From an uncultured Gammaproteobacteria bacterium (GTDB taxonomy: Bacteria; Patescibacteriota; Patescibacteriia; JACRDY01): 64,000 bases of DNA. Below the pieces are notes generated by a model. It did not search any database and was not told the DNA's origin. It saw only the letters and a list, made by a program, of their open reading frames with translations. The number at the start of each line of letters is the position of its first letter. Positions within the stretch are counted from its first letter, which is position 1. The stretch covers positions 107-64,106 of the forward strand of contig CAZJZH010000001.1 of the NCBI GenBank assembly GCA_964550465.1. Reading direction: 5' to 3'. Below are positions 7,283 through 64,000 of this stretch, piece after piece. The position numbers and the translations under genes are program-made.

Positions 7283-7283
7283 T

Positions 7284-21900: not shown

Positions 21901-21922
21901 AGTGATGTAGGTTATTTTTGTT

Positions 21923-46440: not shown

Positions 46441-46527
46441 GGAGAGGTAGCTGCCCGCGACATGACTGGCGGAGCCAGTCTGTGCGGGTCCGACCACTGC
46501 GCCGCAGGCGCAGATGGGCGGAAGTGG
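46441..46527 (+). repeat. ~87-nt repeat, copy B (1 mismatch to copy A)
   Basis: ggagaggtagctgcccgcgac...gggcggaagtgg. Direct repeat of copy A, 323 bp downstream of it. Confidence 0.5.
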
Positions 46528-46969: not shown

Positions 46970-47013
46970 TGGTCCGACCACTGCGCCACAGGCGCAGATG
47001 GGCGGAATGTGTA
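46970..47013 (+). repeat. partial third copy of the ~87-nt repeat (3' half)
   Basis: ctggtccgaccactgcgccacaggcgcagatgggcggaatgtg matches the 3' half of copies A and B with a few mismatches. It lies directly after tRNA-Ser(GCT). Confidence 0.4.
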
Positions 47014-47481: not shown

Positions 47482-47514
47482 ACATGAATCATACGGTAAC
47501 TAAAAACGATTCGC
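47482..47514. terminator. Rho-independent terminator (bidirectional) downstream of sodA
   Basis: aaaaacgattcgccgcggcgaatcgttttttt: a 10-bp perfect palindromic stem. Confidence 0.6.
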
Positions 47515-47541
47515 CGCGGCGAATCGTTTTTTTATATTCTC

Positions 47542-48126
47542 TTACGGTAGCAGCGTACAAACTTGCCACCAGGCGTCGATATAATCCGGTCGCTTGTTCT
47601 GATATTTGAGGTAATAGGCATGCTCCCCAAAAACTAAGCCAATGACTGGCTGGTGTACCAGCAAATACGGTGAGTCATGATTGGGGTTAATGTACACAGT
47701 CAGCTGCCCCTGAGCATCCCGCGCCAACCAAGCCCAACCACTGCCAAAGCGACCAGCAGCTGCAGCCACAAATTGTTCTTTAAAGGTATCTACAGAACCA
47801 AAGGTTTTTTTAATCTCTGCTACCAGCTGTTCATCCACCTGCTTGTCTGGCCCCATAATCTGCCAGAAGAAGCTGTGATTGACCGCTCCCCCGCCGTTAT
47901 TACGCAGCGAGGTTTTGTCCGCCTCATCCATCTGCAAGCTATCAAACTGCTGCAACAACTCCTCGACTGACTGCTCAGCCAGATCGGGATATTTTTCTAG
48001 AGTGGCATTAAGTTTGGTGATATAGCCGTTGTGATGCTTAGTATGGTGGATTTCCATGGTCTGAGCATCGATGTGTGGCTCTAGAGCATCGTAAGCGTAT
48101 GGCAGCTGTGGTAGTTCGTAGGGCAT
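47542..48126 (-). CDS. sodA: superoxide dismutase (Fe/Mn family)
   Basis: YELPQLPYAYDALEPHID...HHTKHH...DVWEHAYY-like C-terminal motif (FGEHAYYLKYQN). Confidence 0.9.
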   Translation of the reverse strand: MPYELPQLPYAYDALEPHIDAQTMEIHHTKHHNGYITKLNATLEKYPDLAEQSVEELLQQFDSLQMDEADKTSLRNNGGGAVNHSFFWQIMGPDKQVDEQLVAEIKKTFGSVDTFKEQFVAAAAGRFGSGWAWLARDAQGQLTVYINPNHDSPYLLVHQPVIGLVFGEHAYYLKYQNKRPDYIDAWWQVCTLLP

Positions 48127-48140
48127 AGTATGGGTCATTA

Positions 48141-48833
48141 TTAATTATCATCATCAGCGGTGGCTAAGGCAAATACCTCAACTCGCCGCACACCAGCCGC
48201 TTTGAGCGTAGCAGCAGCAGCGCTGAGAGTAGCGCCAGTGGTAATCACATCATCAACCAACACAACGGTGGCTGGCAATGATGCCCCTGGCACACGAAAA
48301 GCACTCTCCATGTTACGCTGTCTAGCCTGTTCAGTCAAACCAACCTGCGAGCGGGTCCAGCGCTGGCGGACCAACAATCCAGCCTTAACGATCAGCTGCC
48401 GCCTAGCGGCCAGCCAATCAGCGATGACAGCTGCTTGATTAAAGCCTCGCCAGCGTAACCGCCGTCGATGGAGCGGTAATGGCACCACTACCCCATTAAC
48501 CGGTGGTGGCTGGACACAGCTCAGTATAGCCCTGGCTTCACCAGCAAGGTACTGATACTTGACCGCGTGCCACAGTGTATTAAACAGCGGCTGATGGTAA
48601 TCAAAAGCCACCCAACAGACATCAACCGCCGCTGGTGGCTCAACCTGCCGGGCTGGTACCCTACCAATCTGCTTGAGGCAGTCTTCACAACAATACTGCC
48701 CTGCACGACGACAACCAAAGCAGCGGCGCGGAAAAATAAGGTCAATCAAAACTGGCCAGGGTATGTGCATACCTGACCAGTCTATCACTACTATGTAATC
48801 CAATCCTAAATTACAACCAGTAGGCGCCGTCAA
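48141..48833 (-). CDS. comF: ComF family protein (competence; phosphoribosyltransferase-fold)
   Basis: N-terminal Cys4 zinc finger (CFGC...CCEDC) and a PRT motif (VVLVDDVITTGATL). Confidence 0.75.
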   Translation of the reverse strand: MTAPTGCNLGLDYIVVIDWSGMHIPWPVLIDLIFPRRCFGCRRAGQYCCEDCLKQIGRVPARQVEPPAAVDVCWVAFDYHQPLFNTLWHAVKYQYLAGEARAILSCVQPPPVNGVVVPLPLHRRRLRWRGFNQAAVIADWLAARRQLIVKAGLLVRQRWTRSQVGLTEQARQRNMESAFRVPGASLPATVVLVDDVITTGATLSAAAATLKAAGVRRVEVFALATADDDN

Positions 48834-49410
48834 TCAGCCACTGATTGCCTTGTTGGATAAATTCTACCCGCATTGATTGACGGTAAATAGTTGCCTGACC
48901 ATTGACCACTTCTTCCCGCCGGGTAGACACCACTGCCTCAGCTGTACTACCGCTGACCGTCACACTGTCCACTGCCAGGGCCCGGGTAGTCACTACTTGA
49001 TCATCATCACGCTTAGCTTGCTGACTGATAAAGGTATTTGACCAGTTACGCATGGTGGTGGTCATCAGCGGCTGGATGTCACGAATGTTATTAAAATTAT
49101 TTGATGAGGAATAGGTACCAAACCGCTCGACAAACGTCCGGGCTAGTTTTTCTAGTGACACTTCTGACTGCTGCTCAGTGGTCAGTGTAGTGACTGTTTC
49201 CTTGGTTGGCTGCGTGGCTGCTGGCTCTGCTTCAATCACTAACCGACCACTAGCCGTAGCACCGTTTTCGATCACTACATCATCAGTCGGCGTCGTGTCA
49301 GCCGGTTGATTATCACCCCCACCAAAAACAAAAGCTAGAATAATAGCGATAATAACCAGTGGTACGCCCACTGCTAAACCGATCAGGACTGGTCGTGGAA
49401 TATTATTCAT
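48811..49410 (-). CDS. bitopic membrane protein (possible VirB8-like/NTF2-fold T4SS component; hypothetical)
   Basis: N-terminal TM (LIGLAVGVPLVIIAIILAFVF) followed by an extracytoplasmic domain of about 150 aa. It lies directly downstream of virB4 in the same operon. Confidence 0.4.
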   Translation of the reverse strand: MNNIPRPVLIGLAVGVPLVIIAIILAFVFGGGDNQPADTTPTDDVVIENGATASGRLVIEAEPAATQPTKETVTTLTTEQQSEVSLEKLARTFVERFGTYSSSNNFNNIRDIQPLMTTTMRNWSNTFISQQAKRDDDQVVTTRALAVDSVTVSGSTAEAVVSTRREEVVNGQATIYRQSMRVEFIQQGNQWLIDGAYWL

Positions 49411-49415
49411 AGAAA

Positions 49416-51275
49416 TTATACGTTATCGGTAGTCTGTTGATTGTCTGCAAACTCTTTCTTGGCCGCTTCAATCTCCAGCAGCTGCCGTGGGTCAGTAGTA
49501 ATCAGCTGATCTTCAGCGTATGAAGCCACCACCCGAATAGCGGCGTGCTTATTACCGGCAAAGAAAATGCCTTCACCGACAGCTGATTCTAGCAGCAAAT
49601 ACTTCTCCCCTTCTGTCAGCAGGAATGTCTCCTGGACCGTATCAATGGCAGCTGGTGACTGCTTCATCAGCATCTGTAGAGCTGAGTTGGTCACAATCGC
49701 GCGACCGTATTCTGAATGCAAAAAGTCATTAACGTCCTGGGTAATAGTAGTCACGCCCAGATAGTATTTACGTGCTCGTTTGACCAGGGCAAAGATAAAC
49801 TTGGCTGAGTCCTCATGCTGCATCAACCACCAGCCTTCATCAATCACCAACAGCCGTCGTTTCTTCTCTGAGCGAACCACGTTCCAGATGTAGTTAACCA
49901 AGTTGTAAATAGCCAACGGCCGCAGTTCGTCTTCTAGGTCACGGACCGAAAAGGCTACCAGCTGATTGTCTAGGTCGATATTGGTCGGATGGTTCAACAG
50001 CCCGGCAAAGGTGCCTTCGGTATACTTCTTCAGCCGCAGCGCTACGTCCGCACCACCTTCCATGCCTTCTAAAATATCGACAAAGTCTTGCATGATTGGC
50101 GGCTCGACATCGGCTAAATTGGCCTGTGGGGTGATGTCTTTCTTCGCATACGTTTCCAGCAGCGCTCGGTCGACCAATGAGTCTTCTTCTGAGGTCAGTG
50201 TACCAGTCATCAGTCGAACCAGACCCTTGACGGTAATAACACCGCTGCGGATGATGTCATCAGCACTGGTATCAACATCCGTTGGTCGTGGTAAGTCAAA
50301 TGGGTTGACTTTCGAGTCTGCTGATAGCGAAATATTGATATAGGTACCGCCAACTGCCTCACACAGGTGCTGATATTCCTTTTCTGGGTCAATGACAATC
50401 ACCTCAGTACCCATCATCATGCTGCGCAAAATCTCCAGCTTGACCGTATAACTCTTACCGGCACCAGACGTAGCAAAGACCACCATGTTGGCGTTTTGCA
50501 AGGAGAAGCGATCAAACAAGATCAAGCTGTTGTTGTGCCGGTTAATACCGTACATGATGCCATCATCACTGGACAATTCAAACGAGATGAATGGGAATGA
50601 CGAAGCCGCCGGCGAGGTATTCATGTTAAAGAAAATAGCCAGCTCGTCACGGCCCAACGGCAACGTTGAGGTAAAGCCTTGTGAGGCCTGATACAGCACG
50701 TTACGTGAATAGACTAAGCGTGAGCCGAAAATGTCTTCTAAATCACCGGTCAGATCGTCCAACTCTTCTTTTGAGTCGGCATAAATGGTCACATACAACG
50801 CGTACTGGAAAAAATGCTCGATGCCTTGGGTCAAGTTATCACGCAGCTCTTCGATGTCGCGCAGCGCCGTTTCTTTAATCGGGTCACGTGGCGCGCCCTT
50901 GTCGCGGTCAGCTGATAGTTCGGCCTCCAGGTTACCAGCTCGCTTCTTCAGGTCATTGAGGATCAAAGCTGACTTAACCGGATAGAAAAACATCGACACA
51001 TCAATCGGTGAAGAAAAGTTCAAAATAGGCACAAACCAGCCGATGGAAATATAGCGCGGGTAGGTAATAACAAACGACGTCCGGACATACTGACGACCGA
51101 GGCGCAAATAGGTTGACTGAACATCGTACGAAGCCGGCGCCACCAAATCTAAAATCGAAACAGTACCGGAACGGTAGCGCTTTTCTTCGGCAATCACCTG
51201 CGGCGTGACTTCAGCCTGAGCCGGTTTTTTGGCCTCGGCTGACTGCTGTTTTTTATTGTTCCCAAACAAAGCCAT
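49416..51275 (-). CDS. virB4: type IV secretion / conjugal transfer ATPase VirB4 (TrbE/CagE/TraE) family, C-terminal ATPase portion
   Basis: Walker A FATSGAGKSYT and Walker B LLVIDEGWW. The overall VirB4 ATPase-domain pattern is present. Confidence 0.85.
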   Translation of the reverse strand: MALFGNNKKQQSAEAKKPAQAEVTPQVIAEEKRYRSGTVSILDLVAPASYDVQSTYLRLGRQYVRTSFVITYPRYISIGWFVPILNFSSPIDVSMFFYPVKSALILNDLKKRAGNLEAELSADRDKGAPRDPIKETALRDIEELRDNLTQGIEHFFQYALYVTIYADSKEELDDLTGDLEDIFGSRLVYSRNVLYQASQGFTSTLPLGRDELAIFFNMNTSPAASSFPFISFELSSDDGIMYGINRHNNSLILFDRFSLQNANMVVFATSGAGKSYTVKLEILRSMMMGTEVIVIDPEKEYQHLCEAVGGTYINISLSADSKVNPFDLPRPTDVDTSADDIIRSGVITVKGLVRLMTGTLTSEEDSLVDRALLETYAKKDITPQANLADVEPPIMQDFVDILEGMEGGADVALRLKKYTEGTFAGLLNHPTNIDLDNQLVAFSVRDLEDELRPLAIYNLVNYIWNVVRSEKKRRLLVIDEGWWLMQHEDSAKFIFALVKRARKYYLGVTTITQDVNDFLHSEYGRAIVTNSALQMLMKQSPAAIDTVQETFLLTEGEKYLLLESAVGEGIFFAGNKHAAIRVVASYAEDQLITTDPRQLLEIEAAKKEFADNQQTTDNV

Positions 51276-51276
51276 A

Positions 51277-51954
51277 TTAGTTGGTTTCTGTTACATCTAC
51301 CTTGGTCATGTCACGAATCGGCTGGGTAGCAGCAGTATCTGGGTTATATGAACTATAGTACAGCTCAATCAAACTCTGCGTGTCCAGTCGCTGCGAAGTC
51401 AGCCCCACGCCCTCTAAACCAGTAATGACGTGCTCAACGCGCTGCTGCAGCTCCTTGTTGCGTGACTTAAACTTCTTGTCATTTAACTTGACCACTGAAG
51501 CTGGTGAAAATAGCTCCCCAAAGCGGGAGAAAAAGCCTTTCTGCTTATCTGACAGTGGATCATATGGCACGATGACATAAAACCGCTTACTCATAATATC
51601 TCCCAACTCAACCAGTTCCCCGATGTATTTACGGTAATCACCAATCTGCATCTTCAGCAGCTCATTGGTCTGCTCACGCTCCATCTTGCGCAGCTTCTCC
51701 AGGTATGGGGTGATGTCCATCTGCCGAGATTGCACGACGATTTGAATCGGGTAGGTAAAGGAGTTGAGGAACTGCATGTAGGCGCTGATAATGGCCTGCT
51801 GTTCGTCCTCTGATTTGAGATCAAAATTAATACTGGAGACCATCAAAATAGCCCGCAGCGTACCGTCTTTCATAATGACGGTGTCATTGCGAATCTCGTT
51901 AAAGGGCAGCACCTGCCGCGTGTTTGGTTTTTTACTGGTCTGCTTGGCTTGCAT
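51277..51954 (-). CDS. VirB4 N-terminal-domain-like protein (apparent split VirB4)
   Basis: 225 aa directly upstream of the VirB4 ATPase ORF, with a 1-nt gap. The pattern LPF..I.DG..........L.V.SINF.L.SE.EQ matches the VirB4 N-terminal domain. The two ORFs sum to about 844 aa, typical of full-length VirB4. Confidence 0.45.
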   Translation of the reverse strand: MQAKQTSKKPNTRQVLPFNEIRNDTVIMKDGTLRAILMVSSINFDLKSEDEQQAIISAYMQFLNSFTYPIQIVVQSRQMDITPYLEKLRKMEREQTNELLKMQIGDYRKYIGELVELGDIMSKRFYVIVPYDPLSDKQKGFFSRFGELFSPASVVKLNDKKFKSRNKELQQRVEHVITGLEGVGLTSQRLDTQSLIELYYSSYNPDTAATQPIRDMTKVDVTETN

Positions 51955-51957
51955 AGC

Positions 51958-52419
51958 TTACTGCTGTTGATTGGCTACCTCATCATTAGTCGGCCGGTAG
52001 GCGCCGCCGGTATTGACGATCAGTGATAACTCCTCTAAATGACTTTTGTTAATCATCGGCTTAACGGGAATTTTTTCAGTCTCTTCTTCAGTGTCATCCG
52101 TAGCCAGTAAATCTTTAATCTGCTGAGTGGTCATCTCTTTACGCCAAACCATCAGACGTGGTGCCTTGAATGTTTCGATAATATTGAGGAAGAAATAGTG
52201 AAACGGCCGGCCATTGACCTTTAAAAAGGCAATGGTACCAAAGACGCCGAAAGTAACGACGGCCGAAATAATAAAGCCCCAGAAATCAAGTAAGCGATAC
52301 TCGATAAACATCACCAACATGCCCACCACCATGATAATAAATTGGCGGACAGTAATAGGGCCAATAATTTTTGGCTCAACGTCGATAAATTGTGGTACCA
52401 AAAACTTATTGGCAGGCAT
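51958..52419 (-). CDS. PrgI/VirB3-like small membrane protein
   Basis: FLVPQFIDVEPKIIGPITVRQFIIMVVGMLVMFI...: two TM helices. The size and motif are typical of PrgI-family VirB3 homologs of Gram-positive T4SS, and the gene lies upstream of VirB4. Confidence 0.6.
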   Translation of the reverse strand: MPANKFLVPQFIDVEPKIIGPITVRQFIIMVVGMLVMFIEYRLLDFWGFIISAVVTFGVFGTIAFLKVNGRPFHYFFLNIIETFKAPRLMVWRKEMTTQQIKDLLATDDTEEETEKIPVKPMINKSHLEELSLIVNTGGAYRPTNDEVANQQQ

Positions 52420-52426
52420 AGGACTG

Positions 52427-53707
52427 TTAGTATTCTATCATGCTGGACAGCTTTCCCAAAGCACGGAATTCTTCGGCCGATACAAACGGTCGCTGCTCTT
52501 TTTTGCGCTGGGCGATAGTCTGATCGACCGGCTGACCGGCCGCCATACTATCAGCCGCGATAGCCAAATAGAGTCGGTGTACCTGACTAGTGCGCCAGGC
52601 TTCCACTGCCGCTACCCGCTGACCAAAACTCTCTCGTTCCAGCAAATCAATTTTTTCTTTGATTTTGACAATAGCTTTGGCTGGATCACTGTTGAGGGCG
52701 CGGAACTCTTCTACAGGGCCAACTAACTGGGTCGGTGCGTGGACATCGGTAATTTTCTTACCGGCCGCGGCTGGAGCCTGGGCTCGAGTCACCTGTTGCG
52801 GCTTAGCCGGTGGCTGCTTACGCGGTACCGGCTGAGCGGTTGGTGATGGTACGGCTGACTCCTTCTTGCTAGCCGCTACTGAGGTCGACGGCAGTGGTCG
52901 ATCAATAAACGGCTTAGCTGGTGACTGCTGTTTAGCTCGCCGTGGTACTGGTTTGGTGGGTGGAGTTGATGGCTGCGGTGCTGCTGGTTTAGCCGGCGCA
53001 GGAGTTGGTGACGGCGACGCGGCTGCTGACTTTTTCGGTATCAGTGATTCAATAGCTGACCGACCCTGCGGCGGCGCTGGTTTGGGCTTTGGCGGTGGTG
53101 ATGACGGTGGCGCTGTATGTGTCTGCTGCTTTGGTTGAGCTGCAGCGACAGTTTTTTTTGCTGGTGGCTGGTCCGGCGGTGACTGAGTAGATTTTTTAAC
53201 CACTGGCGCTGGTGGTGCTAACTCGTGGCGCAATTCCTGGAGAGAAATTTTATGCAAAGCTGGTGATGGTGACGCTACTGGTTTTACCTCTGGTGATGGC
53301 TGACCCTTTTTCTTATGAGCAGCAATAATAGCCAACACCATGTCAGCCGCAGCCGCGTCTAAGCCCAGTCCCCCACTAGCCACGGCTTTGGTCAGCGTCT
53401 CACGGGTCTGTTGGTCTGTTCGCACACCTTTGAGGTTAATCATGACGGCATTACGCAGCCGCCGGTCAATCAGTTCCTGGTCACCACCAGCGCTGATGCC
53501 GGCTCGTAGTTTAGCTACGATAGCATCAACCTGCTGGTCAGGGTGTGGTGCGGTTGATGACGGCGCAGCTGCCTGACTAGTGCTCGCCGCCTGCTGACCA
53601 ATAAGCGAAAACTGTCCGCTGGCATCGCGGACGGGGATTTCATCAAAGCTGTCATGTGGTGCGCCTCCTGCCATAGATACTGTTTTATCGCCGCCAGGCG
53701 AAGTCAT
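52427..53707 (-). CDS. Pro/Ala-rich low-complexity protein (hypothetical T4SS-associated)
   Basis: 426 aa with a central stretch of about 200 aa of P/A/K/Q-rich repeats (PPPKPKPAPPQ...). It sits in the operon between the PrgI-like gene and the upstream hypothetical gene. Confidence 0.45.
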   Translation of the reverse strand: MTSPGGDKTVSMAGGAPHDSFDEIPVRDASGQFSLIGQQAASTSQAAAPSSTAPHPDQQVDAIVAKLRAGISAGGDQELIDRRLRNAVMINLKGVRTDQQTRETLTKAVASGGLGLDAAAADMVLAIIAAHKKKGQPSPEVKPVASPSPALHKISLQELRHELAPPAPVVKKSTQSPPDQPPAKKTVAAAQPKQQTHTAPPSSPPPKPKPAPPQGRSAIESLIPKKSAAASPSPTPAPAKPAAPQPSTPPTKPVPRRAKQQSPAKPFIDRPLPSTSVAASKKESAVPSPTAQPVPRKQPPAKPQQVTRAQAPAAAGKKITDVHAPTQLVGPVEEFRALNSDPAKAIVKIKEKIDLLERESFGQRVAAVEAWRTSQVHRLYLAIAADSMAAGQPVDQTIAQRKKEQRPFVSAEEFRALGKLSSMIEY

Positions 53708-55115
53708 TTTTAGCTACGTCAAAATACGCCAACTGACTGTAGCGGTCATTACCGGATCGCTTAAGGGTGTTACCCAACCACAAACCAATCCGCGCCGCTT
53801 CACCCTCCGGTAAGCCTAAACGGTCCTGCAAAATAGTGCTCAAGAAGAGCTGTAAAAATCGCGGCGCTGTCGGCATCAGGGCAAAGTCCTTAGCACCTTG
53901 AGCGTCTTGGCGACGCTGCAGCTGCTCTATCACCACCGCGCCAAACTGTGGATCTTCTTTGAGGATATCATCTAGCCGCTCTACCTCTGCCAGTAGTAAC
54001 AGGGCGGCCACTACTTCTTCTTTATCCGGCGTCTGCACCTCAACCAGACGATGGAGCTGCTGGTACAGCTGTTCAATATTGCCGCCAACCGTGCTGCGCA
54101 TCTGCTCCATCCGCTCGATAATCCGCTGGCGCTCGCCTTCATCCCCACGGTAGCGCTGGCGAATAGCTTCGGTCGAAACAGTTGGTTGTGGCGCTACTGT
54201 CGGTCGAGTGGTGACTGGCTGTGGTTGAGTGGATGAAGCTGGTGCTGATTGCGTGGTGGTTTTGGTCGGTGCGACTGTGTTAGCTGGTTCTGCAGCCAGC
54301 ACTTGCTCAACCGCTGTAGCTACCTCCTCATCGGTCAACGGCGTAAACGTGCCTTGACGGTATTCCACCACCGTACCATCTGCCGCCTGAGCATACTCTC
54401 GATCCTCATTGCCAAGCATGTCAGAAGATTTGTACTTCAGTTCTTCAAACAAATCAAACAGGGCTGTGACCTGTTGTCGTTGCTCTGGAGAGAGTTTGCT
54501 GAGGTTGGGGTCTTGAATAAGAAAATCTTGATACGCTAGTTGGTCAACTGGCTCAATGCCCAGTGTAGCAACATAGAGCTTAACCCAATTAGCAATCGTG
54601 CTCGTCGTTTGCCGATCATTAAACGACAGCTGCTCTGCGGTCAATTTTTCTGTATTACTCTGAATAGCTTGGCGGATACGCTCCCGGTACTCGTCACGTT
54701 CATCAACATCATCCTCATACTCCAGTCGATCACGCAGTTTCTCGACAATATCCAGCTCAGCATGCAGGGCCAAACCAGCGGCTAACGACTGGCGAAACTG
54801 ATCAAGCACCTCAGGCCACGGTAATAACGGTAAGCTAACCCAACGCAGTTGAGTGACCAACTGTTGGTACTGAACATATAACTCCGGCGCAGCTGAAGAT
54901 ACTTTTTCTAGTCGTGCTAATTCAACAATGCTGTCAGCAAAATCTTTTGCTTCGACCATGTCATGCTGTAGCACTACTTGTTGGACATCATCCTGCAGCC
55001 GCTGTAACGACTGAGATGTTAACAAACTAAAGCGCGCCTGCTGCTGGCCTTTTGAGCGCGCAGGTCGTGCTGACTGCGGACCCTTTTGTTGAGTTTTTGT
55101 TTTATTTGTCGTCAT
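53685..55115 (-). CDS. hypothetical cytoplasmic protein (T4SS operon member)
   Basis: 476 aa with no TM. Acidic coiled-coil regions. Overlaps both neighbours. Confidence 0.45.
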   Translation of the reverse strand: MTTNKTKTQQKGPQSARPARSKGQQQARFSLLTSQSLQRLQDDVQQVVLQHDMVEAKDFADSIVELARLEKVSSAAPELYVQYQQLVTQLRWVSLPLLPWPEVLDQFRQSLAAGLALHAELDIVEKLRDRLEYEDDVDERDEYRERIRQAIQSNTEKLTAEQLSFNDRQTTSTIANWVKLYVATLGIEPVDQLAYQDFLIQDPNLSKLSPEQRQQVTALFDLFEELKYKSSDMLGNEDREYAQAADGTVVEYRQGTFTPLTDEEVATAVEQVLAAEPANTVAPTKTTTQSAPASSTQPQPVTTRPTVAPQPTVSTEAIRQRYRGDEGERQRIIERMEQMRSTVGGNIEQLYQQLHRLVEVQTPDKEEVVAALLLLAEVERLDDILKEDPQFGAVVIEQLQRRQDAQGAKDFALMPTAPRFLQLFLSTILQDRLGLPEGEAARIGLWLGNTLKRSGNDRYSQLAYFDVAKNDFAWRR

Positions 55116-55123
55116 AGCAAATA

Positions 55124-57997
55124 TTATGCTTGTTCCTCGTCTCGAATCTTGCCAATACTATCCTTCAGGTCGTCCTTAGCATTCTTAACACTCTTACCAA
55201 TTTTACCCTCGATTGCTTTGAGCAGATCATTAATTTCTGTTTCTGACATACCGCCCCGCTGCAAACTTTTTACCATTACATCTTTATCCGACATCAAATC
55301 TTGCAACAGCTGTGTTGGAACGCGGTTAAGCTTAATCTGTTTTTCTAGGTCTCCACCGCGCTTCTCCAGCACCACCTGACCAGCAAGATTCAATTTTACA
55401 CTACCATCAGTCTGCAAGGCCATCATTTCGCCAGTTTTCATCTCGCGCCACATCTTTTCTGTATCTTTCTTCATTACTCGACTCGCCGCTACCATAGCAT
55501 TAGTCTTGATGTCAGCGGCATAGTACTCTCCTCGATTAGAATCATACAAATACCGAGCAACAAAGTTGGTGTCACCAGCTTTCATGGTATTGGCTGATGC
55601 CTCTTTAAGTAATTTCATGGAATCCTGTGCGCCCATACCAAGACGCCCTTCTAATACATCTCGACGAAAATCTTCTATGCCAGTAGCTGAGCCCTCATAG
55701 CCATTCAAATTCAGCATCCATTGCAGATTGCCATCCTTACCAGCACGTTTAATAATTGCCATCGCTTGACCTGTCAAGCCTTGTGCTACCGCCTTTTTAA
55801 ACTCAGCTGCTAATTCTGTTTCATCAAGTTCAGCGAAATCAAAGCCTTTTTGTTCCTCCGCCTCTAGCTCAGCTTGTTGTTGAGTGGCCCGTGTTAAATC
55901 TGGCGTCAATTGCGCTCGCTGCTTTTCAGTCTTAGCGGTGGTATTATTTGCTCGCTCTTCCAGAGTTGATGCCCAACGACGATGACCTTCAGCATCCGCT
56001 GGACTCTCCTCTAAGCGAGCTCTGGCAGCCAACCGCTGTTTTTCGAGTTCATTATATTCCTCAATTGCACCCTTATCGCGCTGTAACTCCTGATAGCGTG
56101 TATCATTTTTATACCGTGATGAATCCCTATCATACGACGCTTCTATATCAGACATTTCTCGCTCAATCCTGCCTAGGTCAGCATTCCGCTTGACTCGATC
56201 ACGCCAAGCGAGCGTACCATCACCAGCTTTGCGAACATCGCTAAACCGACCATCTTGCATTTGACTTTCACTGTAATCCAACTGCTTCTGTATAACTTTT
56301 TCGTCATCACCCATTTTAGCTGCGTGCATAGCAAGAATTTTTGAGGGCGTGTATCCTTCTACATCAGCATACGCACTATCGTATGCCGTCGCATCTGCTA
56401 TCAATTTTTGACGCACTGTCTCAGCATCATCACCTGTTTTACCTACTACCTGGTTAATAACAGATGAGTCCACTACCCCAGTTCTTAGCGCAATTTGCTG
56501 TCGATCAGTCTCCGACAAAGCTTTGCCAGCAGTAGCTGCAACTGCTAGATCGCGCTGTAACCCAGCTTCATATCGTTCCCCTTTAGCGGTGTCAAGCCCT
56601 TTGTTAATATCACCAATATGAGTCATGCGGTTAACCTTGCCTATGCCAGCTGCAAGACCTCCTTTCCAAAAATCCTCCGGATTACCCATCATGGAAATAA
56701 ACTGGCCTCGGCGTGAACGCCCCCCATACTTATTTGATAATTGCTTAGTTTTAGCTCCTGCTTCCAACCAATCTGTTTTTTTTCTTTGCTCCATGCCAGC
56801 TCTAATAGCCTGAAATTGACGCACAGGACTCAGGTCTATACCGGTGCGCTTCGCCTGCTTGCGATTGGCATACGACGCCACTGCCAGTGGTCGTTTCGCT
56901 GTCCACTTAGCCGCTGATGTCCCCCAACTCTTGGCCTTACCAATAGCAGCTGTACCTAACCCAGCTCCGGCCACCTTTAACTGGGCAGTCATGGTTAGAC
57001 CACCAACTAATAAGCCGACAGAGATAATAAAGTTAGTCAAAAATCCCGGCTCACCCGCCTTACCAATACCGGCACTAACTGTACCGGACTCGCTACCAAA
57101 ATTACCACTACTATCACCCGTCAAGCCTGGCTGGTTGAAGCCAGCCGCGCCACTGAATGAGGCCATTGATAACCAGATAAAGAAGGCTAGTGTTGGTCCC
57201 GCTATAACATATTTAGTGAACTCGCCAAACATCTGATTGGCCTTGCCCGCCCCTGAGGGGATCGCCATCAGTAAGAAGACTAGTGGTGACAGTACCACGA
57301 ATAGCCATAACATGACGATGCGAAAAGCTAGCTGCACTACCATGATAAGCATCACTACCAGCAATACTAAGAGATAGAGAATGGCGTAGAGGTAAATGGC
57401 AATCAAATCACCACGGACATCAGTGATCTGCTGTTTATCAACCGCGCCTGGAGAAAACCGCAACACATCCGCCAAGCCCACCCCAGCCATCAGGTTACCC
57501 GGGCCGATATCTTTAAAACCAGCCACAAAAGTCAGCATTACTACTTGACCAGCGTCAATAATCAGTCCATAAATAGTGCGCGAAAAGTTGACCAATAACG
57601 CCAAAAGCAAGACTTTTGGCAGTAATTTTTTGTAGTTATAGTTATCCATCCCCGGCAGAATGGTGGCGATGGCAATAATCAGTAAAATGATGACAAAGGC
57701 CATGTTGGCAACATCTCGCACCAGCACCCAGCCGTAAATCACTGTTGGTGCGTTGATGAACTCATTGTAGCTGGCCACCCAAGCGAGAATGCTAATAACA
57801 GTGACTACCATCTTACCAATAGCGCTAACCAAAAATGCTAGCAAGGCGATAAATAAGTCAGCCACTGTCTCTGTAACTACACCAGCATGCGCCAGTTGCG
57901 GCACTAACACGCCAACCAACACCAGCACCACCGCCAAACCAGCCATCGAGGCGATGGCCTGGCGTGAGCGGCAGAATGTGGTTAAGCGGTTTTTCAT
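55124..57997 (-). CDS. VirB6/TrbL-like polytopic membrane protein with ~550-aa hydrophilic C-terminal extension (TcpH-like architecture)
   Basis: Signal peptide, then about 6 TM helices, a Gly-rich segment, and a long charged coiled-coil tail. This architecture matches VirB6 homologs of monoderm conjugation systems. Confidence 0.55.
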   Translation of the reverse strand: MKNRLTTFCRSRQAIASMAGLAVVLVLVGVLVPQLAHAGVVTETVADLFIALLAFLVSAIGKMVVTVISILAWVASYNEFINAPTVIYGWVLVRDVANMAFVIILLIIAIATILPGMDNYNYKKLLPKVLLLALLVNFSRTIYGLIIDAGQVVMLTFVAGFKDIGPGNLMAGVGLADVLRFSPGAVDKQQITDVRGDLIAIYLYAILYLLVLLVVMLIMVVQLAFRIVMLWLFVVLSPLVFLLMAIPSGAGKANQMFGEFTKYVIAGPTLAFFIWLSMASFSGAAGFNQPGLTGDSSGNFGSESGTVSAGIGKAGEPGFLTNFIISVGLLVGGLTMTAQLKVAGAGLGTAAIGKAKSWGTSAAKWTAKRPLAVASYANRKQAKRTGIDLSPVRQFQAIRAGMEQRKKTDWLEAGAKTKQLSNKYGGRSRRGQFISMMGNPEDFWKGGLAAGIGKVNRMTHIGDINKGLDTAKGERYEAGLQRDLAVAATAGKALSETDRQQIALRTGVVDSSVINQVVGKTGDDAETVRQKLIADATAYDSAYADVEGYTPSKILAMHAAKMGDDEKVIQKQLDYSESQMQDGRFSDVRKAGDGTLAWRDRVKRNADLGRIEREMSDIEASYDRDSSRYKNDTRYQELQRDKGAIEEYNELEKQRLAARARLEESPADAEGHRRWASTLEERANNTTAKTEKQRAQLTPDLTRATQQQAELEAEEQKGFDFAELDETELAAEFKKAVAQGLTGQAMAIIKRAGKDGNLQWMLNLNGYEGSATGIEDFRRDVLEGRLGMGAQDSMKLLKEASANTMKAGDTNFVARYLYDSNRGEYYAADIKTNAMVAASRVMKKDTEKMWREMKTGEMMALQTDGSVKLNLAGQVVLEKRGGDLEKQIKLNRVPTQLLQDLMSDKDVMVKSLQRGGMSETEINDLLKAIEGKIGKSVKNAKDDLKDSIGKIRDEEQA

Positions 57998-58003
57998 GCA
58001 GTG

Positions 58004-61000
58004 TTATAGCTCAGCGTCTGGGGGTAGGATGACAATGTAGCCGTCATACGTCGCCCAGTTTCCTTGATTAGCATCACACGCGGTTTGATCTTGATCAAAC
58101 AAACACGCGTCACCCCCACAGCCACTATCACCACAAACTTGCCAGTTATCAATCACTTGAACTCGTGGTTGTAAAGTATTGCATGGGCCATCATAGTCGC
58201 CCCAATCCGGATCATCATCTGCAATAAATGGACTACAATCAGCTCGATAGACTGAATTACCAGTAAAGTTCTTCGTATTCCCCGCATTACTGGATGCTGT
58301 AGTATAGGCATGTGAGAAGAGTACCTCAAAGTATGCTTCTCGACAGGCCCCATTAGGATTTTCCCCATAATTACTGCTGCCGTCCGTACACTCCTGACGA
58401 ATATTTGCATACGCATCAGACGGGTCATCGCCAAAGGTTCTATCGAGCAGCGCGGTAGGAATATCTGACGTCTGATCATAGCCATCACCCGTATAGTCAA
58501 CACGGAATCGACGGAGCGGCAATTGCTGACCATTTTCATTATAGGCAAAGAAGTGAATATTTCCCCAGAAAAGATCTGTTTTAATGATTGGCCAACCATC
58601 GCCCCGGCCAGCTCGGAAGTCGATCGAAATATGCTCAGAGTCCCCCTGCTCTAACCCCTCGGCGCCACGAGCAATAACCTCAGTAATAACCGGCGCTTGG
58701 CCCAGTACATCACGGTCATCGTACGGCCCTTGGAGTGCGCTTGTTTTCTGCTCCCAGTCATCACCAACTTCATCTTGGCGCCACACACTAAATGCTTTGG
58801 CAAACAACCGACCGATACGGTTAAACCCTTGAGAGAAGTACGATTCATTCGTTCCAAGAGCAGATGTATTGTACCCAACACATCTACCACCACCACTATA
58901 ACAAGCCTCTAGGGCACTATCTGTGTCACAGTTTTCACCCTCTGCCTTGCCACCAAAACAGAAGCTACCTTGGCAATAAGCCGTAGCCAGCCCTTCACAG
59001 GCATATGGCCCGCCAGCCGTGAATACATTCTGCGCTTGATCATGATAGTCAATCACCTCATAAAACTGGTTGTCTGGAACTCCGCTACCACCAGGACGAT
59101 AAGTCCGGTCTGAGTCAGCCTTGAAAGCCCCATAAAAATCATAATAATCCCGTAAGGCGTGTGGCACAGCGCCACCAATAGTATAATCAGCACTAAGCAC
59201 GTCCGTAAAGAAGTGGTTTGTATATATAGCCGCGTGGTCATCCCAGTCATCAATATCGGTAGCTGCTTCTTTAGCGAATTGAGCTAGCGTTGAGCACTGT
59301 TCCTTGTAAACAATAAACGGCCGCAGGGTAATCTTACCATTTCTGTTTGCTTTCGTATCAAGACACCCGTCAGTTCCTCGGCTACCAGCATCATTTGTAC
59401 TATGAATAACGCCAAATCGGAATCTGTCGAGCTGTCCATCGTCATCCCAATACACATTAATCTTAAAGCCATTTTCTTTATTGCCCCGCACATCATCACT
59501 AAAACTATTACCAAACGGGTTAGCAAAAGACTGGTCACCCTCATTCCATAAACGCTGATTGTATGTCCAGCGGGTGTTACTGCTATTGTATGCGTAGGCT
59601 TGATCTAACCAACCGTTGCCAGGGTTATTCCCTGACACCTCTGTTGGGTACCAAATATCCCAACCGCCGCTGGTGGGTTCGTGAAGATCATGCTTATTCG
59701 TATACAGCAACTCTCTATCCGCCGGATCAGCAATAAACACCGCTGCGAACCCGTTCTCAACTCCCTCAACTCCGTCTAACTCAACATTGAGATAGTTCTT
59801 GGGCAACGGGTTCTGTGGCAGTGCCGGTCGTGCGCCCTCACCCTTATCTGGAAATGCACTACTAATACACTCCACTTCTTGGAAGTAGATAGCCAGCACC
59901 TCGTCTCGGTGAATATTGCCGATACGAGCATTGTTAGATGGCTCAACCGATAGTCGACAGTAAGTGAAGTCCTCCTCCTTTTTAACTGGCGTCAGACGAA
60001 TATCACCCACCTTAGCCCACTCCGCGATAATTGGCTGAGTATCATAGGTTGGTTGACCAAATAGGTCGTATCCTGTCACTCGCTTTGTTTTACCTATCTG
60101 CGTAGTATTATCGATTGGACCATATACCCAGCCGTAGTTTTCATCATCATCGCCACTGGAAGGAGGTTGGTTGCTATTACAGAAATCACAATTACCACCG
60201 CTCTCTCCACAGTCATTTTTATCTTCAACACGGACAACACTCCATGGCCCCGGCGCAGCATTGTCATCTGGACCACGAGGCTCTAGACCACTGTCTCGTT
60301 CCCAAAACCAATCAGCATCTTCACGCGTTACCCCCAGTCGATTAGCATTGGCCATAGCAATCGGACTAGCATCAGATCGCTCATAAAAGTATGGGCCATT
60401 GCCTTTTTGCGCCAAACAGTAGTTAAGCTCTTTTCCTTCTATTAGTGCTGTATAGTCAACTGTTGGATCACTCTGGAAGGCATCATTTTCACCACGTAGC
60501 TGATCAAGCGGCATCCAAGTCAAGCATGGGTGCTTGTCAGCCTTTCCTTCAATAGTTCGACTCTCTAAGTATTCTATGCAGTAGCCTCGCCACCCTAGAC
60601 GGACTTGTTTTTCTGTTGGCTTGACACACACATCATGTTCACTTGGTGTCCGAGTCCTTTGCTCAGTATCACGATTTATGTACAAGTCTTCAGCGCCCTC
60701 TCCATCTTCAATATAAATCGGTTCATTAGGCTGTAACATACAGTCGCCATCTCTGTTACAAGGGTCTCCAATTCGAGCAATAGCGCCGGTGATAGAATTA
60801 CCTGCTTCACCGTCTGCGTCTGCGCAAAAGTAATCTCCTTCCCAAGCGGAATCAACATCATTTAGATCATGTGGGAAATACCCCCGACTACCACCAGTGC
60901 TCCATTTTTCATAGCTACACTCACACACATCACCATCCAGCCCGCAGGTCGAAGCATCAGTGTAATACGGATTTTGCCCGTCATAAACTACGCGATCAAA

Positions 61001-64000
61001 TGGGGCGTCGTTATCGGCGTACCCACGACACTGCTTACCGACAGGATCATCCCATTGCCCCACGCCCACACCAAGCACTTCCCGAGCGCCACTACCAGCA
61101 GGAACAAAGGTTAATCCATAATCAGCGCCATCAAAATCACAGGTTGGATCACTGCCACCACAACTATCATCAATACACGGCGTTCCATCACTACACTGCC
61201 CAATGAGCTGTTCTCGCAATGACCAAGCTGGGTAGAGACCTGGAATCGAATACCCGGAGTATTCATAGCCATCCCATCCCAATGAACGGTTCAAATACTT
61301 ATTGATATCTAGGACGCTCCGAGTATCGCGCGCGGCATCACTGGTAACACCCTCACCCCACACTACCGGATCACCAAAGCCTGCTTCATAGCCTGGTGCT
61401 GTCCCATAGAGCTCTTCAATGGCTGGAGGGATTGGTGTTTCATCGCTACACAGAAGCGCGCTCGTGCTACTGGCATCGGGCACAGCGGTACATGAATGAG
61501 TACCAAGACACACTCGACGTAATTCTCCACTGTTTGGATCGGAAATAGCCACGGAGTTATTACACCCTATCCACTCGGCACAAACACGGTCACGACGAAC
61601 AGCAATCATATCATTACTGTCGTTTTGACGATCCGCGCCATCTTCATCTCTACAGTACTGAGAAACATCACCCGTAACCGAACAATTCAGTGGTGGTACT
61701 TGGATATCGTTGTTTTCTTCACTACGCTGATAGGTAGCAACGGCACTGAAGGTCAGGTCAGCTTGCCACTGTTCTTCACCCCCGCCAATGGTAATATCAG
61801 CGTTTTGATAATCAAACTTACCGCGATTTTCGAACAAGACACAACCTTCTTTGAGTGAAGCGCCGTTGCGACAACTATCACGATCAATCAAATCATTGTC
61901 GATGAAGTAGTAGTGATTATTATCATTAAAGGTATCACCATTCGGATCAATAAACTCGGTACAACCGCTTTCATCATCTGGGCACAGCGTGGCTTGTGAG
62001 CGTACATTGCGTGGATTACCACAGCCATTATCGTCAACGCCAGGCTTGAGTGTACAGAGGTCATTATCTTCACTGCCAGCTACCACCCAACAGCTTTGAC
62101 TACCGCCAATATCACGGAAGACACATTCACCTGGACTGTTGTAGGTTGGCCGGGTTGGGTCACCAAAGTAGGCTGGATTTAAGCCATCGGCATCACTAGC
62201 AAAGTTTTCACAACTATGGTGCTGTGGCGCGCAGAGAATACTGTCGTATTGGTTTGGATTGTCTTTGAGATAGACTGGCTCAGCGGCAAAAACGAAGTCG
62301 TAGTCCACATCAAAACTGACATCACCAACACTTGGATCGTTGAAATATGGCGTATCCCCCTTGTACACAGTAGCCTGCCAGTCGATTGGGCTCACCGCCT
62401 GACAACCAGCATCAGCTGCTTGACAGGTATACTCTGGACGGTTAACCAAATAGACAAACTGGTCAGCTGGTACCTGTACTCCGCCACTCATGTTGTACTC
62501 CGCGTTATACGAAATATCGCCAGCGTAATTATAGTCATCAAGGTAATATTCCAAACCAGCAGTGTCATCGGTGGCAATAAATGTACACTCTGTTCCTCCT
62601 TGAGGTACCGTGCAAGCGTCAAAGGTCCCCCCACCAGACTGTGGCGATAACTGTGCCAGACACGTACACCCACCTGCCTCTGTACAAATAGCTGACAAAG
62701 CACAGCGGGTATTAAACGACTGGTACCATGGTGAATTCGAATTGTGCGTATCGATCACTGCCTCACAGCCAATGGCTGATTCTTCACACAAGCGGGTGAA
62801 CGACCGCAGATTGACGATCTGATTATTGGCATCTTGATAGGCCTCACAGCCCAGCATAAATTGTGGGGCCGGCGCACCGCTGTAGTTTTGGTCACACTGG
62901 GCTGGTGTATTCCACGAATCAGCAATCAAGAACTGAGTGTCTGTCACCTGTTCTAGTCGAACATTATCGATATAAATCTGTGATTGGCCGTCAAAGACCA
63001 GCACATCACCGTTCACATCCCAATCAACAAAGACTGGGCCAAAGCGGTAGTACTGCCAGTCAGTACCCATTGATTGATTATTGGCAAAGATACCGTCTTG
63101 ACCGCTGCCATTGAGCTCGCCACTATCACGGAAGAAAATACTGACCGTATTACCGATCTGCGCGGACTTACCCCAGAAAGTGATGGTGTATGCTTGGCCG
63201 CTGACCGGCACTTCACCGTCACCGAGCGAACGAGCTACTTGGTGACCGGCATTATTACTGCGGTATGAGTGCGCGCCAACTGAGTAGCTTTCCCCCACTA
63301 CTACGCCAGCGTACTGATTGCCACCCGGTAGGGCGCTCATGTCCCATGCGGTTGGTGTAGCCTCAAAGCCATCTTCAAAAGCTACCGCAGACGCCCCGGC
63401 ATAGTTACCCTGGTATTCGCGACAGCCCGGCTCGCTACAAGCTATACTCTGTTCCGGTGTACCGAGGTAGCGGCACTGACCAGCAAAGTCGTCCCACTGA
63501 CTAGTGCCTCCCGGCAAACTGCCACACTGTGACTCTGTTAGGTTGTAACACAAACCGTTAAATGATTGACCGCCTAGGTTGACACACAGCTGGCTAGGGA
63601 TAGCCACCGCTTGGCCAGCGCCATCAATGACGCGACACTGACTGAACAAACCGCCAGAATCTAGACAGCTGTCGCCCACACCGTCACTATTGACATCAAC
63701 TGAAGCATCATCGGTCAAGCCAACACCACCGGTCAAACGGTACGGATGACACTGACTGGTACACAGCACGGTGTCTGTCATCAAGCGGTAGCTGATTTGC
63801 CCATCAGCTGAGTAGAACTGGCGGCAATCCGGTGTGTATTCTGGATGATACCAAGTATCCCCTGGATTCTGCCCATAAAACGGCTCACAGCTGTAATTAT
63901 CACCGCCAAAGCCGGTTAGTGGCTGACCAAAGGTAGATGAATCCGCGTCTTGGTCAATGTAGACAAATTCCTCAATAGCAAATGGTTTTTGACTGTCAGT
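58004..64000 (-). CDS. giant Cys-rich extracellular protein (>=1998 aa, N-terminus beyond window edge)
   Basis: Continuous minus-strand ORF. The listed TTG start at 63784 is internal; I traced the frame open upstream to at least 63934 (...GTFPQLGFGGDNYSCEPFYGQNPGDTWYHPEYTPDCRQFYSADGQISYRLMTDTV...). More than 100 Cys. Rich in G, D, N, Y and W. The C-terminus ends ...YIVILPPDAEL. Confidence 0.7.
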   Translation of the reverse strand, partial: TDSQKPFAIEEFVYIDQDADSSTFGQPLTGFGGDNYSCEPFYGQNPGDTWYHPEYTPDCRQFYSADGQISYRLMTDTVLCTSQCHPYRLTGGVGLTDDASVDVNSDGVGDSCLDSGGLFSQCRVIDGAGQAVAIPSQLCVNLGGQSFNGLCYNLTESQCGSLPGGTSQWDDFAGQCRYLGTPEQSIACSEPGCREYQGNYAGASAVAFEDGFEATPTAWDMSALPGGNQYAGVVVGESYSVGAHSYRSNNAGHQVARSLGDGEVPVSGQAYTITFWGKSAQIGNTVSIFFRDSGELNGSGQDGIFANNQSMGTDWQYYRFGPVFVDWDVNGDVLVFDGQSQIYIDNVRLEQVTDTQFLIADSWNTPAQCDQNYSGAPAPQFMLGCEAYQDANNQIVNLRSFTRLCEESAIGCEAVIDTHNSNSPWYQSFNTRCALSAICTEAGGCTCLAQLSPQSGGGTFDACTVPQGGTECTFIATDDTAGLEYYLDDYNYAGDISYNAEYNMSGGVQVPADQFVYLVNRPEYTCQAADAGCQAVSPIDWQATVYKGDTPYFNDPSVGDVSFDVDYDFVFAAEPVYLKDNPNQYDSILCAPQHHSCENFASDADGLNPAYFGDPTRPTYNSPGECVFRDIGGSQSCWVVAGSEDNDLCTLKPGVDDNGCGNPRNVRSQATLCPDDESGCTEFIDPNGDTFNDNNHYYFIDNDLIDRDSCRNGASLKEGCVLFENRGKFDYQNADITIGGGEEQWQADLTFSAVATYQRSEENNDIQVPPLNCSVTGDVSQYCRDEDGADRQNDSNDMIAVRRDRVCAEWIGCNNSVAISDPNSGELRRVCLGTHSCTAVPDASSTSALLCSDETPIPPAIEELYGTAPGYEAGFGDPVVWGEGVTSDAARDTRSVLDINKYLNRSLGWDGYEYSGYSIPGLYPAWSLREQLIGQCSDGTPCIDDSCGGSDPTCDFDGADYGLTFVPAGSGAREVLGVGVGQWDDPVGKQCRGYADNDAPFDRVVYDGQNPYYTDASTCGLDGDVCECSYEKWSTGGSRGYFPHDLNDVDSAWEGDYFCADADGEAGNSITGAIARIGDPCNRDGDCMLQPNEPIYIEDGEGAEDLYINRDTEQRTRTPSEHDVCVKPTEKQVRLGWRGYCIEYLESRTIEGKADKHPCLTWMPLDQLRGENDAFQSDPTVDYTALIEGKELNYCLAQKGNGPYFYERSDASPIAMANANRLGVTREDADWFWERDSGLEPRGPDDNAAPGPWSVVRVEDKNDCGESGGNCDFCNSNQPPSSGDDDENYGWVYGPIDNTTQIGKTKRVTGYDLFGQPTYDTQPIIAEWAKVGDIRLTPVKKEEDFTYCRLSVEPSNNARIGNIHRDEVLAIYFQEVECISSAFPDKGEGARPALPQNPLPKNYLNVELDGVEGVENGFAAVFIADPADRELLYTNKHDLHEPTSGGWDIWYPTEVSGNNPGNGWLDQAYAYNSSNTRWTYNQRLWNEGDQSFANPFGNSFSDDVRGNKENGFKINVYWDDDGQLDRFRFGVIHSTNDAGSRGTDGCLDTKANRNGKITLRPFIVYKEQCSTLAQFAKEAATDIDDWDDHAAIYTNHFFTDVLSADYTIGGAVPHALRDYYDFYGAFKADSDRTYRPGGSGVPDNQFYEVIDYHDQAQNVFTAGGPYACEGLATAYCQGSFCFGGKAEGENCDTDSALEACYSGGGRCVGYNTSALGTNESYFSQGFNRIGRLFAKAFSVWRQDEVGDDWEQKTSALQGPYDDRDVLGQAPVITEVIARGAEGLEQGDSEHISIDFRAGRGDGWPIIKTDLFWGNIHFFAYNENGQQLPLRRFRVDYTGDGYDQTSDIPTALLDRTFGDDPSDAYANIRQECTDGSSNYGENPNGACREAYFEVLFSHAYTTASSNAGNTKNFTGNSVYRADCSPFIADDDPDWGDYDGPCNTLQPRVQVIDNWQVCGDSGCGGDACLFDQDQTACDANQGNWATYDGYIVILPPDAEL

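Follow-up and report, generated by a model that had tools for sequence, protein, structure and literature searches.

A resident type IV secretion operon of monoderm affinity in ABY1 Patescibacteria, with a giant cysteine-rich gene and comF in the same block

Type IV secretion systems (T4SSs) of Saccharibacteria have been described by McLean 2020 (PMC7427843) and Wang 2023 (PMC10633639). In S. epibionticum, transposon sequencing (Tn-seq) showed the T4SS (SEML1_0006-0019) to be essential for epibiotic growth, and no recognisable relaxase or coupling protein is part of it (Wang 2023, PMC10633639). A survey of Patescibacteria (Quinonero-Coronel 2025, PMC12102498) found VirB4 proteins with affinity to the mating-pair formation class FATA (MPF-FATA), TrsD as their commonest partner, PrgI, VirB6 and arrays of pilins, while relaxases were nearly absent; VirB8/PrgL-like proteins were rare and occurred mostly in ABY1, where comF, recG and radA lie beside virB4, and no adhesins were detected. 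Delivery of effectors or uptake of DNA and other molecules has been suggested in reviews (PMC11665869, PMC12857230). Here we analyse an operon of this kind on contig CAZJZH010000001.1 (assembly GCA_964550465.1), in a stretch of 64,000 nt (positions 107 to 64,106) hereafter called the window. A complete inner-membrane module of VirB3/4/6/8 type with one ATPase is encoded in one tight operon, which links this module to a giant protein bearing a carbohydrate-binding module (CBM), to two conserved protein families and to ComFC. We consider it roughly 85% probable that the operon encodes a resident, vertically inherited T4SS of ABY1, which goes back to conjugation machinery of monoderms (MPF-FATA), no longer has a relaxase and coupling protein, and acts at the host-cell interface rather than in conjugation.

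In general make-up the locus resembles the T4SSs already described from this clade: it is chromosomal, an MPF-FATA-like VirB4 is encoded beside TrsD and PrgI/VirB3, VirB6 and candidate paralogues of VirB2-like pilins are found nearby, and neither relaxase nor coupling protein is encoded in the vicinity. As in other ABY1 genomes, comF and recG stand beside virB4 and a PrgL/VirB8-like protein is detectable. It differs in that the giant, cysteine-rich, CBM-bearing protein is here a conserved operon member, whereas the survey had no adhesins, in that two families of 426 and 476 amino acids (aa) are apparently unnamed in PMC10633639 and PMC12102498, and in that the pilin-like genes are long hydrolase fusions 6-11 kb away and not a small-pilin array within the cluster. 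Essentiality has been demonstrated in S. epibionticum only.

The block at 48141-64000 comprises nine open reading frames (ORFs), separated by intergenic gaps of 1-8 nt or overlapping by 23 nt (comF with the 199-aa ORF, and the 426-aa with the 476-aa ORF):

58004 to beyond 64000, minus strand: giant Cys-rich protein, partial, its frame open to the window edge
62945-63379, minus strand: CBM4/9/22-like beta-jelly-roll module within the giant protein (residues 208-352 of its partial sequence), predicted from a family profile against the PDB
55124-57997, minus strand: VirB6/TrbL-like protein, extended, 957 aa, predicted from family members and a structure model
53685-55115, minus strand: acidic soluble protein of 476 aa, conserved operon member
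52427-53707, minus strand: protein of 426 aa with a P/A-rich linker, conserved operon member
51958-52419, minus strand: PrgI/VirB3-like small membrane protein (PF12666)
51277-51954, minus strand: TrsD/TraC-like protein, homologue of the VirB4 N-terminal domain (NF041427, NF045975, PF11130)
49416-51275, minus strand: VirB4-family ATPase (NF045971, PF19044)
48811-49410, minus strand: VirB8-like bitopic protein, 199 aa, predicted from AlphaFold2 (AF2) fold, topology and position
48141-48833, minus strand: ComFC/GntX-family protein (TIGR00201, NF008616, PF00156, PF18912)

The start of comF, a TTG, is uncertain, and an ATG 21 codons downstream would abolish the overlap with the 199-aa ORF.

The affinity of the system is given by its ATPase. 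The VirB4 ORF scores above the cutoff of the NCBIfam model conju_CD1110 (NF045971, 8.2e-102, 341.8 bits vs a cutoff of 325) and matches the Pfam family P-loop_TraG (PF19044, 4e-29); its Walker motifs A (ATSGAGKS, position 268) and B (LLVIDEGW, position 477) are both intact, and a motif scan of the operon proteins identified it as the sole P-loop protein among them. Judged by these matches it is a monoderm MPF-FATA ATPase of the CD1110 type. The TrsD ORF matches NF041427 (5.7e-8), NF045975 (4.5e-13, model positions 96-233) and PF11130 TraC_F_IV (7e-6). For comparison we used a VirB4 scan with one genome per species, which gave 80 loci (L001-L080) at 70-81% VirB4 identity; because TrsD is an ORF of its own with its own stop codon in 80/80 of these loci, the split between VirB4 and TrsD is ancestral and does not reflect a frameshift. 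PrgI exceeds the cutoff of PF12666 (5.2e-7, 30.6 bits vs 27), shows the hydrophobic profile of a two-helix hairpin and, according to tblastn, lies directly upstream of TrsD in 75/80 loci. Weak NCBIfam matches to PspA, DUF1104 and LEF-10 were dismissed as noise from low-complexity or coiled-coil sequence.

The two remaining membrane components are recognised through their relatives and their predicted structures. The 957-aa protein by itself has no direct match in Pfam or NCBIfam, and a PDB profile search with its family alignment returned coiled-coil noise only; among its 46 homologues, 11 match PF04610 TrbL/VirB6 (best 8e-6) and some contain PF19590 TrbL_3. The five best PDB matches that Foldseek returned for its AF2 model (predicted local distance difference test, pLDDT, 75) are all chains of TrwI/VirB6 from R388, the best with E 0.017 and a probability of 0.99, at low TM-scores. 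Seven to nine hydrophobic segments in aa ~1-340 are followed by a Cys-free, helical and hydrophilic domain of ~600 aa, and the protein fits the 'extended VirB6' type as described in PMC12857230. For the 199-aa protein, a single-sequence search yielded two homologues, and an alignment from the fetched loci 53. Its AF2 model, built on a 52-sequence alignment, shows a transmembrane helix at 6-29, a linker and an NTF2-like domain (pLDDT 96-98 over aa 78-198), for which Foldseek lists CagV/VirB8 (6iqt, 8e-4), an IcmL-like protein (5cnl), PrgL (7aed, 1.5e-3), DotI (3wz4), TrwG/VirB8 (8rtd_Y and 4nhf) and TcpC (3ub1) among its best PDB matches. The gene directly follows VirB4 in 73/80 loci (tblastn). 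We regard the protein as putatively VirB8-like, a call that rests on fold, topology and position, since unrelated NTF2 proteins match as well and the sequence profile of the family reaches PrgL weakly, at E=2.

The original prediction had listed nine co-directional, tightly packed ORFs on the minus strand, all of which are present, and had named among them VirB4, a separate ORF for the VirB4 N-terminal domain, PrgI/VirB3 and comF, which the scans against Pfam and NCBIfam support. Its view that the components are of the monoderm (Prg/Tcp) type agrees with a VirB4 above the CD1110-family cutoff and a PrgI above the gathering score; the VirB6/TrbL-like assignment is backed by the PF04610 matches of family members and by the structural matches to TrwI/VirB6, and the ORF it called a bitopic membrane protein is indeed one, its identity now sharpened by AF2 and Foldseek to a VirB8-like fold.

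Comparison with monoderm MPF-FATA systems (pCF10 Prg/Pcf, C. difficile CTn2 CD1110, pGO1 Trs) shows the same combination of a VirB4 over the CD1110 cutoff, a VirB3 of PrgI type and a TrsD as in pGO1, together with a VirB8-like NTF2 protein as PrgL/TraM/TcpC, wall hydrolases of M23 and soluble lytic transglycosylase (SLT) type as PrgK, and a large putative surface adhesin in the operon, as PrgB, to which the giant protein is unrelated. Unlike those systems, the ABY1 operon has no relaxase, VirD4/PcfC-type coupling protein or oriT-bearing mobile element; its VirB6 is extended (957 aa), VirB2-like hairpins, normally missing from monoderm systems, are present, and plasmid VirB4s, the best of which come from monoderm hosts, share no more than 37% identity with the VirB4 of the window.

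The giant ORF has no in-frame stop upstream and runs off the window, and the source contig measures 64168 nt. About 1,998 aa from the C-terminal part are in the window, and some 1,100 aa at the N-terminus lie beyond the contig end; full-length homologues have 2,300-3,200 aa, and the complete protein would measure about 3,000 aa. Of the earlier description as a giant Cys-rich surface protein, the cysteine content and the membership in the operon stand; the ORF in the window has to be corrected to a partial one that lacks its N-terminal part. The protein is strongly acidic (D+E 312 vs K+R 124), without internal repeats, and contains 3.9% Cys, compared with 0-0.2% in the other operon proteins except ComF (3.5%, zinc-finger cysteines included). 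Searched exhaustively with HMMER, 1.84 billion representative proteins yielded no more than 54 related clusters. Dozens of cysteines are invariant in an alignment of homologues, and the one that matches best, P0144 (3,213 aa), starts with a hydrophobic transmembrane anchor. Searched against the PDB, the family profile (A9) matches the CBM4 of a laminarinase (1gui, E 5.3e-6), CBMs of xylanases (3jxs, 2.4e-4; 1k42) and the CBM of an endoglucanase (2zex, 6.5e-4). The window sequence alone has no Pfam match, and among three full-length homologues run against Pfam a sub-threshold match to PF02018 CBM_4_9, in P0145, is the only one. We read the giant protein as a putative disulfide-stabilised, glycan-binding surface protein and as a candidate adhesin, a kind of protein of which the survey detected none.

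The giant gene is a conserved operon member. It stands directly upstream of the VirB6-like gene in four contigs selected for bearing giant homologues (L081-L084), likewise in a fifth, shorter one (L085), which brings the fetched loci to 85 in all, and large Cys-rich ORFs occupy this place in at least 15 further loci. In L081-L083 the giant gene is directly preceded on the same strand by a gene for a protein of ~320-340 aa with calcium-binding thrombospondin type 3 (TSP3) repeats and a single transmembrane segment (L081 8965-9984, L082 1091-2110, L083 7941-8951), whose position is taken in L084 and L085 by unannotated ORFs of ~260 aa; the ORF preceding the giant gene comes after sua5 and ksgA in L081-L084. 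It is possible that the operon in fact begins with the TSP3-repeat protein gene. L081 also carries, some 4 kb upstream of the operon, nine tandem paralogous lipoprotein-like ORFs (1846-6055, minus strand; 129-188 aa as called), which end in HLHS(L/F)(D/A/N)ELH or a motif close to it (EIH/DIH in two cases); the one tested has no Pfam match.

Between the VirB6-like and PrgI genes lie the two families for which neither single sequences nor families gave a credible match in Pfam, NCBIfam or the PDB. In the 426-aa protein a linker rich in proline and alanine (13% P, 16% A) joins a conserved N-terminal motif to a conserved C-terminal domain of ~110 aa; tblastn found the gene in 53/80 loci, and the 66 ORFs that take its place upstream of PrgI are all homologous. 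The 476-aa protein is acidic and predicted to be soluble, with neither a transmembrane segment nor a P-loop, and its positional equivalents proved homologous in 41/56 loci (linked by jackhmmer and hhalign, with probabilities of 98% and 97%). In the relative L083 a gene for S-adenosylmethionine synthetase, metK (21731-22912), sits within the T4SS operon between the genes of these two families.

The conserved block ends with comF. The ORF matches TIGR00201 comF (1.4e-20) and NF008616 GntX (2.6e-19), both under the full-length cutoffs, as well as PF00156 PRTase (4e-7) and the double zinc ribbon PF18912 (8.8e-5), and its two CxxC motifs, CFGC and CEDC, make up a four-Cys zinc finger joined to a domain like that of phosphoribosyltransferases. 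In 55/68 loci with enough flanking sequence comF adjoins the VirB8-like gene, at a median gap of 68 nt. In the window the same strand continues into sodA, which begins 2 nt past the comF stop codon:

47542-48138, minus strand: sodA (Sod_Fe_N 1e-32, Sod_Fe_C 8e-31)
47502-47531, 3' of sodA: bidirectional terminator with a 13-bp stem

The only strong terminator follows sodA, so sodA is probably co-transcribed with the T4SS genes, and the transcription unit probably has its 3' end at 47502-47531. Because comF is followed by sodA only in the close relatives L001, L081 and L082, while most ABY1 loci lack this arrangement, we regard sodA as a passenger specific to the lineage and no component of secretion.

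Across the 80 species-level genomes tblastn recovered the order VirB6-like, (476-aa), 426-aa, PrgI, TrsD, VirB4, VirB8-like, comF, an arrangement far beyond chance. Where VirB4-bearing loci carry a taxon-level label, it is of the Patescibacteria group (Magasanik-, Falkow- or Parcubacteria type); we take Magasanikbacteria and Falkowbacteria, and likewise the Buchanan- and Komeilibacteria that supply VirB6 homologues, to belong to the GTDB class ABY1. Many third-party metagenome-assembled genome records with this operon are titled 'uncultured Gammaproteobacteria bacterium', which looks like a placeholder or a mislabel. Upstream, relatives show the order sua5, ksgA, TSP3-repeat single-transmembrane protein, giant gene, VirB6-like gene, with ksgA, sua5, prfA and nrdDG upstream of the giant gene in L081, L083 and L084; the operon continues at least to VirB4 in L081-L083 and ends with comF and sodA in L081 and L082, as it does in the window. 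Neither a relaxase nor a VirD4-type coupling protein, integrase or replication protein turned up in the 64-kb window when the operon was scanned with Pfam and NCBIfam and the remainder with Pfam, and the precomputed Pfam annotation of the genes called upstream in L081-L084 lists no relaxase, coupling protein or integrase. Because the gene order recurs, housekeeping genes lie upstream and mobility genes are missing from 64 kb, we conclude that the operon is a resident apparatus and not an integrative and conjugative element (ICE).

That the operon might be part of an ICE, or its decaying remnant, with relaxase, VirD4 and integrase past the contig end, is suggested by a VirB4 of the type found in monoderm conjugative elements, by the presence, at a distance of 1-3 kb from the end of the operon, of three tRNA genes and of a GIY-YIG ORF with repeats, and by the fact that in this genome the upstream side lies beyond the contig. 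Gene order and chromosomal neighbours (comF on one side, ksgA/sua5 upstream in relatives) are, however, constant across a bacterial class, the VirB4 identity of 70-81% implies strong purifying selection, the GC content of the operon (0.48-0.52) is that of the remainder of the window, without any compositional break, no att-like direct repeat is shared between the tRNA region and the operon, and mobility genes are missing from 64 kb. On these grounds we reject the ICE, to which we assign a very small probability. The original prediction, too, had called the locus resident and not an ICE, and class-wide synteny, VirB4 identities and the housekeeping genes beyond the giant gene in relatives speak for it: the block keeps its order in 80/80 related genomes, and contigs of relatives have housekeeping genes where mobility genes just beyond the window would have been expected of an ICE. 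Its statements that relaxase, VirD4, integrase and replication genes are missing and that the flanking genes (sodA, recG) are core housekeeping hold for its 16 kb and also for the whole window.

Indeed, the rest of the window is housekeeping (L1, thyA, DHFR, tmk, gatB, miaA, thrS, dnaE, pheST, rseP, clpB-like, recG, sodA). It includes a compact cluster on the plus strand (4399-7952) with dCMP deaminase, thymidylate synthase, a DHFR-like protein, a P-loop kinase, dUTPase and thymidylate kinase, which deserves notice in a patescibacterial lineage, as these are usually described as unable to synthesise nucleotides de novo. The tRNA region carries two copies, 99% identical, of a GC-rich element of 87 nt (46118-46204 and 46441-46527) and, at 46971-47007, 37 nt of a third. 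The element opens with 13 nt that also form the 5' end of the adjacent tRNA-Ser genes, has a stable predicted fold (-49.5 kcal/mol, z = -3.6) and finds no match in Rfam; its copies alternate with tRNA-Ser(tga), tRNA-Ser(gct) and the small GIY-YIG ORF (46574-46849, plus strand; PF01541 3.4e-13). In the closest relative, L001, the two tRNA-Ser genes lie 20 nt apart without any of these elements, so about 0.5 kb appears to have been inserted in the window; none of the 85 fetched loci contains the repeat.

Three paralogous Cys-rich proteins are encoded 6-11 kb from the operon end:

37003-38175, plus strand: first paralogue
38172-39485, plus strand: second paralogue
40633-41979, plus strand: third paralogue

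These proteins of 390-448 aa (3.2-3.8% Cys) share in their alignment a near-identical, VirB2/TrbC-like two-helix hairpin, matched below gathering scores by PF18895 T4SS_pilin (4e-5, 9e-5, 4e-3) and PF04956 TrbC (7e-3 to 0.3), and differ in their Cys-rich outer domains, of which one has no assignment, one is a Peptidase_M23 (PF01551 1.7e-9) and one shows an SLT-like ES...GLGQ motif (E 0.25). A gene for a YibE/F membrane protein lies between the second and third of them. By their sequence features they form a probable pilin-like/VirB1-like accessory set of the T4SS; they resemble the 'VirB2 arrays' of pilins described from Patescibacteria (PMC12102498) and could supply a VirB1-like wall-hydrolase function.

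As to function, we infer that the apparatus serves as a host-contact conduit. The giant protein, with an N-terminal helix anchor as in its homologues, would bind glycans of the host envelope, the VirB2-like, M23 and SLT-like proteins encoded 6-11 kb away would open peptidoglycan or build a short pilus, and VirB4 would drive the movement of macromolecules through a channel of VirB6 and VirB8. Several points weigh against a resident, non-conjugative T4SS at the host interface. The NTF2 fold is common outside T4SSs, and ARC6, the CaMKII hub and dehydratases also match the 199-aa model; the VirB6 and VirB2-like assignments are based on sub-threshold or transitive matches. One 64-kb contig of the genome is in view and a VirD4 or relaxase may lie elsewhere, the more so as Patescibacteria commonly encode coupling-protein homologues at a great distance from virB4 (PMC12102498).

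Two kinds of cargo can be envisaged for the host-contact conduit, and we slightly favour import of host-derived nucleic acid to ComFC over export of proteins or effectors, since the lack of a coupling protein, the ComFC gene within the operon and the nearby recG make import a little more attractive for ABY1. The former, tentative reading is that of a DNA-import machine like ComB of H. pylori or the archaeal Ced system, in which host or environmental DNA would be taken up and ComFC would receive the single strand for recombination or nucleotide salvage. The idea has already been raised (PMC11665869, PMC12102498). It is favoured by comFC at the end of the conserved block in 55/68 ABY1 genomes, by the lack of coupling protein and relaxase, which is the pattern of uptake-type T4SSs, by recG, which lies less than 5 kb away here and no more than 10 kb away in 13 loci, by a weak match of VirB4 to the CedB family (2e-13), and by the dTMP-synthesis/salvage cluster elsewhere in the window, which indicates that the organism processes nucleotides. 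ComB, which works with ComEC and ComFC, and Ced have in common with the present system a VirB4-family ATPase, membrane parts of VirB3/6/8 type, the lack of coupling protein and relaxase, and a connection with ComFC, which in our case consists in the adjacency of the genes. Yet ComB is a diderm system with VirB7/9/10, all Ced proteins but the ATPase are unrelated, and the CedB match reflects generic ATPase similarity. ComEC and DprA are not encoded in the window, and sodA exemplifies an unrelated gene riding in the operon, so that adjacency can be incidental. DNA uptake is the function of ComB and Ced and would be new for a patescibacterial T4SS; in S. epibionticum, the sole patescibacterium tested, the T4SS is essential whereas comEC, comF and dprA are dispensable (PMC10633639).

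Somewhat less likely, in our opinion, is export of proteins or effectors into a host bacterium for nutrient extraction, with the giant protein or the Cys-rich hydrolase fusions as conceivable substrates. Such export is the commonest non-conjugative function of T4SSs and has been proposed for Saccharibacteria (PMC10633639, PMC11665869), exporters without a coupling protein are known (Ptl and Brucella VirB, PMC12102498), and large proteins of secreted type are encoded in and near the operon. Substrates are, however, usually received by the coupling protein, which is missing here; the hydrophobic anchor or signal at the N-terminus of the giant homologues suggests Sec-dependent export instead of the T4SS, and no effector-like gene was identified. 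That the apparatus merely builds surface structures, assembling a VirB2-like pilus or displaying the giant adhesin without any transfer of cargo, appears improbable to us: VirB2-like hairpin proteins nearby, the essential pilin arrays of S. epibionticum (PMC10633639) and the CBM-bearing protein in the operon would be in keeping with it, but the pilin-like proteins are here hydrolase fusions of 390-448 aa and not small pilins, and VirB6- and VirB8-like channel parts have been kept and conserved.

The kind of system is already published, and the original prediction, whose inference of a DNA-uptake or cell-contact machine agrees with published speculation (PMC11665869, PMC12857230), independently re-derives published conclusions. 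As far as we found, new relative to the published work are the two conserved families and the giant CBM-bearing protein, whose gene is conserved in ABY1 as the first large one of the operon. One might further imagine the monoderm-type T4SS of ABY1 as a contact-dependent importer of nucleic acid, in which a disulfide-rich, glycan-binding protein of ~3,000 aa docks the epibiont to the host, VirB2-hairpin-anchored M23 and SLT proteins breach the wall, and DNA passes through VirB6, VirB8 and VirB4 to the co-transcribed ComFC. We think this full sequence of events rather unlikely; if true, it would be a Gram-positive-type counterpart of ComB and Ced that serves both nucleotide supply and gene acquisition in organisms unable to make nucleotides. 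Patescibacteria make up a large share of bacterial diversity and apparently live off other cells, and in one tested species the T4SS is essential. The locus described here leaves the overall picture unchanged and adds handles on it for ABY1, namely the VirB3/4/6/8 module, the giant CBM-bearing protein and two conserved components, while the ComFC gene inside the operon makes the hypothesis of DNA import testable.

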